DNA of 64,000 bases from Malacoraja senta. Taxonomy: Eukaryota. Location of the stretch: assembly GCA_038087875.1 (NCBI GenBank), contig CM075990.1, forward strand, positions 11,658,001 to 11,722,000, in the 5' to 3' direction. The notes under the pieces are model-generated. The model did no database searches. It saw nothing but the letters and a program-made list of their open reading frames with translations, and was not told where the DNA came from. This document shows, one piece after another, positions 433 through 63,099 of this stretch; positions within the stretch are counted from its first letter, which is position 1; each line of letters opens with the position of its first letter. The position numbers were made by a program, and so were the translations under genes.

Positions 433-720
433 GTGTAAGAAGGAACTGCAGATGCTGGTTTAAAATCGAAGATAGACACAAAATGCTGGAGTAACTCAGC
501 GGGACAGGCAGCATCCCTGAAGAGATGGAATGGGTGACGTTTCGGGTCGAGACCCTTCTTCAGACTGAAGAAGGGTCGCGACCCGAAACGTCACCCATTC
601 TCTTCACTCCAGAGATGCTGCCTGTCCTGCTGAGAAGGATCTCGACCCGAAACGTCACCCATTCTTTCGCTCCAGAAATGCTGCCTATCCCACCGAGTCA
701 CTCCAACATTTTGTGTCTGT
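433..720. mobile_element. Penelope-like terminal repeat, inverted pair plus partial third copy, with minimal hammerhead cores
   Basis: Minus-strand copy 433-563 abuts a plus-strand copy from 565. Core CTGAAGAAGGGTC(T/G)CGACCCGAAACGTC at 536-563 (-) and 565-592 (+); degenerate core at 630-656. Confidence 0.75.
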
Positions 721-1167
721 CACCATTTTAATATCAGTTTTCCACTGTTACTTCTGCCCTTGCCGACTGCTTGGTGAAAAAAAAAAGATAATGTTTGCAA
801 AGAAGGAATTACTGATCTCATTACGTGTAGAAAAATGACAGGACATCAGTATATTAAAGTATGTATGGAAAGGTCAATGAGCTTGAATGTGACCTGTCAC
901 AGTTATGGAGGCAGAGGAGCCTTAATAAGTGTACCGTGCCCTGGGAAAGTAAGAACAGGTATTCCAAAAAGAAGTCTTTCCCCAGTGTAACATCTTGTTC
1001 ACAGTAGATATTAATATTCCTTACAAGAGATCCAGTATAATTTTCTAATATAGATGCGACAGAGGTGAGAAACGCGGGGTCATATACAAGGTCGTCATCG
1101 ATAAATCCAATGGAAAATTCAGAACAAAATTATTTATCTTGAGTGTGCAGGATAACTTGTTACAGCA

Positions 1168-1331
1168 GTGTGTGTGTGTGTGTGTGTGTGTGTGTGTGTG
1201 TGTGTGTGTGTGTGTGTGTGTGTGTGTGTGTGTGTGTGTGTGTGTGTGTGTGTGTGTGTGTGTGTGTGTGTGTGTGTGTGTGTGTGTGTGTGTGTGTGTG
1301 TGTGTGCGCGCGCGCGTGCGTGCGTGCGTGT
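1168..1331. repeat. (TG)n microsatellite ending in (CG)/(CGTG) variants
   Basis: Directly visible. Confidence 0.98.
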
Positions 1332-1803
1332 GAAAAAAATCTTTTATTCAGCTTTCAGGACAAATCCTGTTTCCCTAATGCCCTTGAAGATCTGGTGGAG
1401 GATGCTTAAATGGGATAACATGGAACTAGTGTGTGGGTGATCAATGGTCAGCGTGAACTCGGTGGGCCGAAGGGCCCGTTTCCATGCGGTATCTCTAAAC
1501 AAAACTAAACTTGGAGGTTTCCGCAGGAGGAGCAGCGGAGTGGGACTAATTAATTGTGTTAAAAGGCTCCTGCTTATGTTCGGTATCATTTATTCAACTA
1601 AATGCAAGCATGACTGGTTGTTACATCTCACTGCAGCCAAACACATGCATGAAATTATTTTCTCTGATTCCAGGGGTATTTAAAGAACTGGAGCTGCTCA
1701 ACAATCTTAGTCGCTTGGAACTAATCAGTTACATGGGTCAGGCTAATTGTCCCGACAATCACAAAAGGAAGTAAGCAAACCATTAAAAAATGACTTAGTC
1801 AAA

Positions 1804-2105
1804 CAAGATGGATGCCAGACAAGATGGATGCCAGACAAGATGGATGCCAGACAAGATGGATGCCAGACAAGATGGATGCCAGACAAGATGGATGCCAGAC
1901 AAGATGGATGCCAGACAAGATGGATGCCAGACAAGATGGATGCCAGACAAGATGGATGCCAGACAAGATGGATGCCAGACAAGATGGATGCCAGACAAGA
2001 TGGATGCCAGACAAGATGGATGCCAGACAAGATGGATGCCAGACAAGATGGATGCCAGACAAGATGGATGCCAGACAAGATGGATGCCAGACAAGATGGA
2101 TGCCA
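1804..2105. repeat. Perfect 16-bp minisatellite (CAAGATGGATGCCAGA), ~19 copies
   Basis: Directly visible; explains the repetitive ORFs at 1743-2327. Confidence 0.97.
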
Positions 2106-59426: not shown

Positions 59427-62208
59427 CAGCGTGCTTTATCTTCCTAGTGCTTGCTATGTGCTGTGGTAATGAGATAGCGAGGGATTAGCTGGTGGACGGC
59501 AGTCTGCACACTGAGCCACGTTCCTGCAGGAATGCGGAGAGGATAAGGATCTTGACGACTGCTCGGTAACGTTGGCTCATTTCCTTTGTGATTTTTAGCT
59601 CATCTGTTGGTGTGAAGCACTCCGAGCTTTCTCGGTACTATGTGCAGGCGCAGGTTTACACCAAAGATAGACACAAAATGCTGGAGCAACTCAGCGGGTC
59701 AGGCAGCATCTCTGGAGCAAAGGTGTAGGTGACATTTCGGGTTGAGAGACGTCACCTATTCCATTGCTCCAGAGATGCTGCCTGACCCGCTGAGTTACTC
59801 CAGCATTTTGTGTCTTCCTTAGTACTGTACCTCCTGGACAATGGCAGTATCTGAAGTCTTGGCACTTCAGTCACTTGTCTCAACCAAGATATTCCCGGAG
59901 GATTGGTCATATAACTGCTGGGCCTGCCCCAGTCAAACTGTTATTTTTCCATCTGTCTAGAAGTTTTGTGACCAAATAGAAGCTGTTCAAATAATTATAA
60001 AGAACAAACATGCAATAATTTCAATATTCCTGCAGCATAACATCGTGAGTAGAATAGATAAGGTACACGCAGTCTTTAACCCAGTAGGGGAATCAAGAAC
60101 CAGAGACAAAGGTTTAAGGTGCGAGGGAAAGATTTAATTGGATCCTGAGGGGCAACCTTTTCACACAGGGTGGTGGGTGTATGGAATGAGCTACCAGAGG
60201 AGGTATTTGAGGCTGAAACGACTTAAAATACAATTGGGCAAGTATGTGGGTAGGAAAGGTTTTAGGCTACACACTTTAAAGCCAAGAAAGTCCTTCCTGA
60301 GACATAGTTGGCATTATCACTTGGGAAATTTGGCACCCAATTTGTCCAAAGACATCTCCTGAGATAAACCTACTAGAGACAGTTCTGCTATAGTGCATGT
60401 ATCCTCAATGTGAATGAGATACGTGGTTGATGAATTGGGAAACACTATTTGCATTACGCAAACCAAATTAGTTACAGGACGATTTAGATCAGGACTGAGA
60501 GAGCCACTTAAAAGTTACTTTGGAAATTGGCCAGCAGTAAAAAAAGCTGTCTTGGAAAAGAAATGTTTCCATGTAGCCTCCCCACAGTAATCACCCTATT
60601 AAGAACACGGTCTGTCCATTCTTTTGCAGCAGGCCATTGTAATTGTCAAGTAATTGGGTCTATTGGCATGTGCCATGATACTACATTAATGAATGTAACA
60701 TACTGCTTTTAATATTTTTAGCTTGCAGCAACAAATTTAAACTTGCAACCATTAAAAATGCTGTTAGTTTTGAAAATCCTGTGGGGGAGAAAACAACATT
60801 GTTATTGTGAGTCTGAAACTCTCTGGTCCGAATTCCCTGTTGGAGCAATTGTTTATATAACATCAATTTCTATAAAATACAGTTTCTTGGAAATGCAATT
60901 ATTGCGTTCTAGCAGATTTACCTGTAATTGGAGTTAATGCATTATTTATGGGGCTACCACCATTTTGAAATACAGTGATCTTTCTTGTCCATCTGTAAGA
61001 TACAGGCAGGGTCTTAATTTAATATCCCACCCAAAGACACAATTATCAGCCGAGATTAGCCGAGCACCGATGGTGCTGAAGGCTCTGCAGTGGGACTTGA
61101 ACCCACAACCTACTAATCCTCAGCCGAGGGTACAGCCCACTGAGCCACAGGGTCTACAGACAATCCTCCCTCCTAGAATTATTAATTTAGGCTAAACAGC
61201 CCATGGTGCAAGCCAGTTTACCAGAGCAATGCAACAGCAACCTCAGGGGAGCTGACAAGTTGATAAAGTATTTTCATAAGAATTCCTTAACACTGCTGCC
61301 TTGATAGAAATGAAATAGCTCCTTCAGGCTGCAATGAATCCACGGGGCAATGCACAGCCTTTTACCCATGGTTGGGAATCAAGAACCAGAGGGCATAGAT
61401 TTAAGGTGAGAGGGGAAAAGTCTTAATAGGAACCTGAGGGGCAACGTCTTCATTCCGAGGGTGGTCTGTTTGCGGAACTAATTATACAGAGAAAGTGGTT
61501 GAGACAGGGACCACAGGAACATTTAATAGACACTTGGACAAGCAGATGGGTAGGAACGTTTGAGGAATGTGGGTCAAATCCTGGCAAATTGGACTAGATT
61601 TGTTGGGGCATTTGGTTGCGTGGGGTGAAAGGCTTGTTGCCTGACTTTGTGGCTCTATGAGTGTTTGACTCCAGCAGAGGAAGGTAGAAAGACTAACCAA
61701 TACCTTTGACACAGAAGAAGGCAGCATACAGTGGGGAGAGAAGTGGATTTAAACCTTGGTGTTATTTATTACTAAATGGCATTCATAAATCCATAATATT
61801 GGCACAGATGAAGCCTCTAAGGTGGACAGTAAAGGGGAGGGGAGAAAATTCGTATTTGGAATTGACGAATGCACAGTTTCAGTGACCTAGGTTCAGTCCT
61901 TGCCGCACAGGTTTGTCTGTGTGGAGTTTGCATGTTCTCCCTGTGATTGCATCGGTCTTCTCTTGGGTGCACAAGACTCCTTCCCCCATCCGAAAAAAGT
62001 GTGGGTTATTAAATTAATTTGCCCCTGTAATTTAATGCTAGTGTGTAGATGATTAGTAAAATGGAGATGGGCCAGGGGGAGAGTGATGTTGATGGGAATG
62101 TGGGGGAGAATAAAATGGATTAGGGTGGGATTAGTGAAAATGGGTGAATTCTGATCAGCAAAGATTCTGGTGACGGTCTATGTCTGCTGTGTCTCTCCGA
62201 CTGGCTAA

Positions 62209-62522
62209 AGGGCCTGCCTGTCCCACTGTACGAGCTAATTCAAGAGTTCTCCTGAGTTTTCCCCTGATTCGAACTCGGAGAATTACGGTAATAGCCGCTC
62301 GTAGGTACTCGGGGCTCTCTTGGGCATTTTTCAACATGTTGAAAAATCTTCACGAGCTTACCGCATTTCCCGAGTACCTACCGTTAGCGTTACGAGCCGC
62401 TAAGAGACGTCCCGAGCTCCGACGTACCCGCTACGTACATTCTACGTGCTTACCACGAGTTCGATTATTTTTTTTAAACTCGGGAGAGCTCTTCAATGAA
62501 CTCGCACAGTGGGACAGTCCCT
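62209..62522. mobile_element. PIF/Harbinger-type MITE, family B
   Basis: Near-identical to 22164-22480; TAA TSD; 4-bp duplication inside the left TIR. Confidence 0.88.
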
Positions 62523-62764
62523 TAAATCTGCTTGTGCAGTCAGGAAGGAAGATAGAATACAGCGTAAGCAACAAGGAACTATTTACAACCTACAACTACA
62601 TGGTCAATTTTTAGAGTGGCAATTACAGTACATAAATCAGAAATGATTCCTGATGAGTGACTTTTTAATTGATGCAATTACAAGCATGCAGTAGAACTCT
62701 TTTCCTCTAATTTGTGTCTCTGGCTTTGGCATGTTAAGTCTGGCCTTGCAAAGCCCCTCCTTGA

Positions 62765-62945
62765 GCATCCAGGAGCGGCAAAGACTGCAAAAGGTTGTAA
62801 GCACTGCCCAGTCCATCATCGGCTCTGACCTCCCTACCATCGAGGGGATCTATCGCAGTCGCTGCCTCAAAAAGGCTGCCAGCATCATCAAGGACCCACA
62901 CCATCCTGGCCACACACTCATCTCCCCGCTGCCCTCGGGTAGACC
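62765..62945 (+). mobile_element. Rex1/Babar-like ORF fragment
   Basis: ERQRLQKVVSTAQSIIGSDLPTIEGIYRSRCLKKAASIIKDPHHPGHTLISPLPSGR; related piece at 63858-64000. Confidence 0.75.
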
Positions 62946-63099
62946 CACACCATGAATCTGCCCATGACCGTACTACGTCTTTTTCGTCGAGTGGGCTATC
63001 TTGCTTGCTATAAGATCTTTGGTTTTGACCCGAAATGTCACCTATGCCTTTTCTCCAGAGATGCTGCCACACCCGATGAGTCACTCCAGTGTATCTTTG

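Follow-up and report, generated by a model that had tools for sequence, protein, structure and literature searches.

The window analysed here is a 64,000-nt stretch of the genome of the skate Malacoraja senta (GenBank assembly GCA_038087875.1, contig CM075990.1, positions 11,658,001 to 11,722,000, forward strand). It contains many copies of a repeat that carries a minimal hammerhead ribozyme (min-HHR) and that is, judged by the coding remnants beside it, the hammerhead-plus-tail end (pseudo long terminal repeat, pLTR) of a Penelope-like element (PLE). The window was searched with a profile built from nine long copies, and the reversed window served as control. In total, 59 matches were found (32 on the plus and 27 on the minus strand; 431-63858), covering 5,414 nt, while the reversed sequence gave none, indicating that the repeat is far beyond chance. 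The repeat unit is about 132 nt, the identity to the majority base is 87% in median and 95% at best, 20 of the 59 matches extend to repeat position 1, and the density is about one match per 1.1 kb. As 22 matches are the arms of 11 inverted pairs and four adjacent direct pairs (tandems) also occur, the insertion events are fewer, roughly 45; one copy (22092-22163 and 22481-22512) is split by another insertion.

An earlier note, made from the letters of this DNA alone, had counted more than 20 copies of a repeat of about 130 nt and described a short, non-coding, high-copy family. Both statements stand: a 30-nt core probe with at most 6 mismatches finds 23 copies, and the profile and the comparison with the element below bear out the rest. 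Its description of the family as being of the scale of a short interspersed nuclear element (SINE) fits the copy number, but the ends of the copies obey Penelope rules, not SINE rules. No tRNA or other Rfam match lies over the repeat, and it does not show the pattern of a classical SINE, with an RNA polymerase III promoter head, a 3' tail of LINE type and variable 5' truncation. The hammerhead itself has no Rfam match at gathering level across the whole window, none of the nine weak matches in 20400-23100 (E up to 10) is a hammerhead, and the motif has no match in viral contigs. In outside sequencing runs, which are available as contigs, the family matches 37,272 contigs in run X1 and 69,320 in run X8, confirming that it is very large in several related organisms.

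Three window copies continue upstream of the core into a common sequence. The longest (56413-56819, plus strand) contains, in order, the C-terminal end of a decayed Penelope-like endonuclease open reading frame (ORF) up to its stop codon, with one internal stop (56413-56466; translation LGSL*PSGANIDFSNLK*), 221 nt of 3' untranslated region (UTR) or upstream pLTR ending in the initiator-like TCAGT(C) (56467-56687), and a hammerhead core, mutated at A6 and G12, with the full tail (56688-56819). The segment 56467-56687 is common to 54902-54990 (83%) and 36928-37066 (77%). These belong to the second long copy (54902-55082, plus strand), with about 90 nt of upstream pLTR and an intact core and helix II, and to the third (36900-37066, minus strand), with upstream pLTR and a degenerate core from 36930. 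ORF end and UTR are also covered in the outside runs, at a depth below that of the best-matching tail part; contig depth in these runs is no measure of copy number.

A better-preserved stretch of this ORF end, recognized by protein identity, lies at 9914-10093 (minus strand). It encodes 60 aa of the C-terminal, GIY-YIG region of a Penelope-like protein, shares 74% DNA identity over 61 nt with 56413-56466, and has no hammerhead within about 210 nt downstream. Its translation is 72% identical to the C-terminus of protein P0001 and 48% to that of P0002, a zebra-shark protein in which Penelope reverse transcriptase (RT) motifs are followed by a cysteine linker and then a GIY-YIG-type region; in one protein search, the only match of the window ORF fragment was a protein of Leucoraja erinacea. 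Translated, the window core reads SLKKGLDPKRH, and the read-through tail of P0002 resembles it (SLMKGLRPKRQ); behind the same ORF, the element of the shark therefore likely carries the same hammerhead motif, as far as a protein can tell. Three predicted proteins (P0001, P0004 and P0005) consist of a Penelope endonuclease tail fused to unrelated sequence, and these fusions are likely artefacts of gene models or fragments that became exons.

In metagenome and genome contigs, a scan for the motif provided 121 outside loci, presumably from animal host DNA. The same ORF end is found in 31 of them, 29 times upstream of the motif on the same strand and twice on the opposite strand. The window profile matches none of the 121 loci with E up to 1e-5, so they represent other families of the same kind rather than the window family. 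As the same motif stands behind the same ORF end in the window and outside it, the repeat is the pLTR end of a PLE, and the Penelope derivation given in the earlier note is upheld by the long copy, in which ORF end, UTR, core and tail are collinear. One locus, L121, with a Penelope ORF end and hammerhead, lies in a contig deposited under a bacterial genome and is likely animal host DNA in that assembly.

The parent element likely belongs to the Neptune clade, because the cysteine linker of its relatives fits the definition of that clade, a CX2-5CxxC linker between RT and endonuclease (PMC8557442). The linker is present in the closest relatives P0001, P0003 and P0016 and partly in P0002, in a region outside the window fragments, and P0002 and P0003 contain MGxxMGP and RYIDD motifs. 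Several points weigh against the assignment to a PLE and to this clade. The GIY-YIG match of P0001 scores 19.4 bits, under the Pfam cut-off of 22.6, the 60-aa window fragment has no Pfam match, and the GIY-YIG label of the ORF end is given by homology to P0001 and P0002. Moreover, clade and template are deduced from fragments. By tblastn, no RT part of the element is found in the window.

Ribozyme core and its possible activity

The majority sequence of the repeat is an intact min-HHR core, with CUGANGA, helix II, GAAA, UH and an extra base after A9, and the majority at positions 24-27 is ACGU, the palindromic remnant of helix III. The minimal, dimer-type anatomy described before is supported. 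Core and helix II are both intact in 8 of the 59 matches, or 8 of the 20 that extend to position 1, exactly the eight best cores of the earlier note, all recovered at their positions and on their strands; ACGU is kept in seven of them, and the second long copy, with its core at 54991, reads ACAU. Among the intact copies are a young solo copy with a full tail (20543-20673, plus strand), a solo copy that starts from position -6 and has a 13-bp target site duplication (22868-22978, plus strand), and a full-length short copy followed by a core-less tandem copy (5992-6208, plus strand). Like the published min-HHRs, the repeat has a type I core, an extra base between positions 9 and 10.1, a G10.1-C11.1 pair, a palindromic 15.2-16.2 and no loop 3; it differs in that helix I, of about 3-5 bp in a closed min-HHR, has 2 bp in the main family, as in the Drosophila virilis variant, and helix II has 4 bp (PMC4209133).

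The genomic copies could be working dimer ribozymes that cut host pre-mRNA where two sense copies meet through ACGU. In favour of this, core, helix II and ACGU are kept in seven copies. Weak in vitro cleavage by dimers of minimal hammerheads is on record (PMC4209133), and of nine Xenopus retrozyme dimers put to the test, one cleaved well (bioRxiv 10.64898/2026.07.22.740005). However, helix I, scored in 16 of 22 copies, has 2 bp in 10, none in three, 3 bp in two and 4 bp in one, against at least 3 bp in 40 of 64 outside contexts, and the long parent-like copies read ...CUCAGU upstream of the core, which gives 2 bp. The longer helix I reported before at 22088 (GGGU/ACCU) does contain GGGU, but this comes from the joint to the inverted arm 21977-22090, which would pair with its copy as a long hairpin. 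The four direct tandems of the window include none with two intact cores, which is also unlike non-LTR retrozymes, and intact copies on the same strand are at least 0.8 kb apart. Furthermore, 4 of the 8 intact cores lie in inverted pairs, which would form hairpins.

Selection on the core was also looked for. At non-CpG sites, core bases are retained in 128 of 140 cases and the rest of the repeat in 829 of 939 (p=0.32), and G12, which lies in a CpG, is kept in 13 of 20 copies compared with 129 of 165 at other CpG sites, a CpG-type loss. The earlier note had named two outcomes that would speak against its proposal, failure of consensus dimers to cleave and no excess conservation of the core in young copies; the second of them, one half, is what this preset comparison gives, in copies of mixed age. 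Its further suggestion that sense copies pair within one pre-mRNA finds no support in this window, with the strands balanced (32/27) and no host exon detected: 0 of 296 scanned frames (from 349 candidates) reached the Pfam cut-off, and three weak matches were judged to be chance. With a helix I of 2 bp in 10 of 16 copies and no tandem with two intact cores, we consider it very unlikely that the genomic copies work as dimers.

In folding models, the dimer is 9-10 kcal/mol less stable than two monomers; one of two outside controls has the same gap, so the model does not discriminate. The consensus fold of 24 copies has no predicted pairs, and single-strand folds of six stretches gave no z-score under -0.25 and no hammerhead shape. 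As models, these folds neither show nor exclude an active dimer. One single-copy fold of the tail region has a possible 8-bp stem (repeat positions 48-55/106-113) and a small hairpin (64-79), which the alignment fold does not support; they may be a candidate protein-binding element. Altogether, the genomic copies look like neutral relics, and ribozyme activity in them is doubtful on the sequence at hand. In the parent RNA, activity aided by protein is possible by analogy with the Poseidon element of Anolis (PAc), and any activity is predicted to be weak, dependent on a dimer or a protein, and confined to the parent RNA.

Ends and arrangement of the copies

The 3' ends of the 59 matches form two clusters about 30 nt apart, with 20 ends at repeat positions 95-105, 23 at 122-132, five between and 11 shorter. 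Penelope tails are 30-40 nt long, and in PAc the RT was described as starting at two internal sites behind the hammerhead and extending both target strands (PMC11167929); the two clusters match both features. Close inverted pairs are head-to-head in 11 cases and tail-to-tail in none (p=0.001). For at least one arm, the closest copies include its partner in 7 of 11 pairs, and flanking duplications are found in three, of 16 bp (6533-6740), 10 bp (19567-19781) and 8 bp (44484-44676, an old-subfamily pair whose duplication alone is within chance reach). Other pairs lie at 431-563 (minus)/565-634 (plus), with both cores intact, joined at a TCAG-N-CTGA palindrome and adjoined by a tandem copy with a broken core (633-732, plus strand); at 34400-34564, where G-AGT stands before the intact core of the minus arm (34400-34471); and at 21977-22512, where the minus arm (21977-22090) faces a plus arm (22092-22163) that continues at 22481-22512. 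Tail clusters and head-to-head pairs with target duplications are known Penelope hallmarks, and the optional 30-40 nt tail and the inverted, 5'-truncated arrangement are both present. Two observations do not favour this picture: the tail is on one arm only in 8 of 11 pairs and on both in none, which is not significant alone (p ~0.07), and tail-to-tail joints exist in outside contigs (14 in X1, 22 in X8), where they could stem from insertion into older copies.

We therefore arrive, with a probability of about 0.8, at the reading that the repeats are hammerhead-plus-tail ends of a PLE, likely of the Neptune clade, left as likely inert stubs by target-primed reverse transcription. Reverse transcription would begin inside the element RNA, about 100 or 130 nt downstream of the stub start. 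The element protein may prime both cut DNA strands, one per start site, and such priming on one RNA, or on two alike, would give inverted pairs of which usually one arm has the tail.

The 5' ends also pile up. Among 57 short copies, 25 begin at -8 to +3 relative to CUGA, where about 8 would be expected under uniform truncation; without the nine seed copies it is 18 of 50. The statement that most copies are truncated right at the core is thus true for these 25 and not for the rest. The shared 5' end is 28-31 nt upstream of the cleavage site and therefore was not made by self-cleavage. Cleavage at GUC was tried as a source of 5' ends and rejected, since the copies span the site and 2 of 59 begin at 30-32. 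Because of this spanning, the hammerhead is likely merely inherited from the parent, and cleavage is likely no step in making the copies.

The parent sequence at the shared start is TCAGTC, with A at -3. It fits the RNA polymerase II initiator consensus, with this A as the start, so that in the longest copy we infer an initiator and predict an RNA start at A 56685. In 13 copies, the match to the parent ends at -2 or -3, and the next base upstream is G in 11 of them. After dropping three arm-derived junctions, G is found in 8 of 10 (p=0.002), and among solo copies in 6 of 8 (p=0.012). In L1, an extra G is the mark of a copied cap (PMC11702581). In run X17, the loose ends of six contigs lie just before 56685, and in X1 and X8 the loose-end consensus of a major subfamily has TATAT about 32 nt upstream of the A, a word missing from the long copies of the window. 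Contigs cannot show where RNAs start or end, and the table of shared contig ends from the outside runs has no entries. A cDNA running off the capped 5' end of the RNA, about 3 nt upstream of the core, would produce both the shared start and the extra G; this weaker inference we hold at slightly less than even odds.

A number of observations weigh against the capped start. The extra-G counts are small and post hoc, and a subfamily with a native G could explain them. TCAGTC is common, with 40 occurrences in the window, and the pile-up site is also a near-palindrome (TCAGTCTGA). Besides the palindromic 563 junction, three window copies reach past the predicted start and end at -5/-6. Of 29 copies in an outside family, 17 stop no more than 23 nt from the core. 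Most of these ends are at -15 to -18, where another near-palindrome lies, and they include both arms of inverted pairs; an initiator-like word stands at -3 in this family too. In a second outside family there is mostly no pile-up, and 18 of 22 copies reach at least 62 nt upstream. Outside depth just upstream of the core is 320,000 against 409,000 over the core, with the caveat on depth given above, and long copies may be commoner genome-wide than the three in the window. The outside loci L007, L011, L014, L022, L043, L101 and others represent a hammerhead family in which short and inverted copies end 15-23 nt upstream of the core, on a near-palindrome, and so parallel the window pile-up at another offset.

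The near-palindrome suggests a close rival that keeps the Penelope origin and derives the 5' pile-up from DNA joining, in which TCAGTCTGA is the point where longer cDNAs anneal or fold back before being trimmed to it. This palindrome lies at the centre of the 563/565 junction, the copies at 53920 and 22092 join through short shared bases, the pile-up of the outside family at -15 to -18 is on the near-palindrome AACGGTT, and self-priming was given as the source of head-to-head palindromes in PMC3846280. However, solo copies with their own target duplications start at the same place (22874, 26708, 40481 and 41211), including 40481-40613 (minus strand), where a 14-bp duplication overlaps the AGT start, and an extra G is not predicted by a palindrome. 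We regard such joining as possible rather than probable.

The shared start could alternatively be a 3' splice site, with stubs made from spliced RNA. A pyrimidine tract and CAG, then U, stand directly upstream in all three long copies, and in D. virilis Penelope the 5' end of helix I is where the intron stops (PMC4209133). On the other hand, the short copies have no common first-exon sequence upstream, and G precedes AGT in 5 of 6. Exon ends usually have A or C at that position. No GT..AG joint to 56687 is present among the 15 joints listed out of 265, which is inconclusive. Taken together, a splice origin is unlikely. Even less can be said for a separate SINE whose transcript, made on the opposite strand by RNA polymerase III, has its fixed 3' end at the shared boundary. 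Read against the A-box and B-box consensus, the minus strand has words resembling both about 50 nt apart, and antisense templates were considered in PMC3846280. Yet the B-box-like word is helix II read backwards, the fixed end has no T-run terminator or A-rich tail, and the other end falls into two clusters that fit a Penelope tail rather than being smoothly truncated, which makes this origin very improbable.

Under the capped start, the scenario may be extended. A capped RNA beginning 3 nt upstream of the core would, by run-off from priming at the 5'-proximal tail, give a discrete "strong-stop-like" product of 100-135 nt that integrates; truncated copies that carry the promoter could then seed SINE-like stubs in trans, needing no defined 3' end of their RNA. 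The ribozyme would serve as a switch, cutting off the cap together with the first 31 nt, provided that it is active with the element protein. As a whole, this extension is speculative and rather unlikely.

Neighbouring sequence in the window

Several other repeats surround the hammerhead copies. At 22164-22480, a different repeat with terminal inverted repeats and an apparent TTA duplication lies inside a hammerhead copy, and an end related to it follows the hammerhead copy at 25993; it is presumably a Harbinger-type miniature element. A decayed ORF2 of a long interspersed nuclear element (LINE) occupies several frames at 27190-29204 (plus strand), its first piece matching Pfam RVT_1 at 1.2e-25. 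LINE 3' pieces without a Pfam match, which we take to be CR1/L2-like, lie at 45144-45725 and within 36900-37400 (both minus strand), and the third long Penelope copy is interrupted by one of them. Another repeat in high copy number, about 300 nt long, is found at 2611-2843 and in about 25 similar places and is likely a tRNA-derived SINE; a weak Rfam tRNA match lies at 21443-21500 (minus strand). In addition, there are a perfect 16-nt tandem array of 19 copies (1803-2106), an AC microsatellite of 700 nt (49664-50364) and two assembly gaps of 200 N (5466-5665 and 36410-36609).

Comparison with known elements and meaning

Dimer cleavage of Penelope hammerheads is reportedly the subject of work by Lunse et al., which may bear on novelty. 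Dispersed single min-HHR motifs, in thousands, were attributed to truncated PLEs and occur in Neptune elements too (PMC4209133, Cervera and De la Pena 2014). Dispersed min-HHRs, inverted pLTRs, tails and pLTR promoters are accordingly already in print in the portions available to us of PMC4209133, PMC11167929, PMC8557442, PMC3846280, PMC2377424 and PMC6765202. Among the top-ranked papers of our literature searches, we found no description of this skate family or of stubs with a common, cap-marked 5' end at the core; repeat libraries (Repbase, Dfam) were outside the search, and the family may be catalogued there. Two supplement files of PMC4209133 have no entry for shark, skate, Leucoraja or Callorhinchus.

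In PAc (Frangieh et al. 2024), the ribozyme is active only with protein, and insertion does not require cleavage (PMC11167929). As in PAc, the hammerhead of the window family stands upstream of two presumed internal RT start sites, which in PAc are about 30-40 nt apart. However, PAc belongs to the Penelope/Poseidon clade and its ORF starts inside stem II (PMC11167929), whereas the window family has relatives with a Neptune-type cysteine linker and a repeat in which no long ORF starts. The available part of the PAc study does not describe short copies with a common 5' end at the core (PMC11167929). Penelope of D. virilis and Adineta vaga offers further likenesses, namely an initiator-like word in the pLTR promoter and inverted head-to-head pLTRs with the tail on one side and target duplications of ~8-10 bp; in D. 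virilis, however, a 46-nt exon and a 75-nt intron separate the start site from helix I (PMC2377424, PMC3846280), while the start predicted for the window family is 3 nt from the core.

Non-LTR retrozymes, reported in one chondrichthyan, are likewise non-coding, pLTR-derived and equipped with a type I hammerhead, and monomers are common among them (bioRxiv 10.64898/2026.07.22.740005). They consist of tandem units, each with a full hammerhead and 363 bp on average in the chondrichthyan (same source), whereas the window copies measure about 130 nt, stand alone or in inverted pairs, and form no intact tandem.

As annotation, the family is ordinary, since dispersed minimal hammerheads from truncated Penelope have been known since 2014. 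If the shared start is a capped RNA end, it would explain the thousands of solo hammerhead motifs in many genomes and would provide a genome-only way to map Penelope start sites. A capped end would also give the ribozyme, with a family whose large numbers suit junction statistics and whose ribozyme function was called unclear in PMC8557442, a testable role in cap removal.

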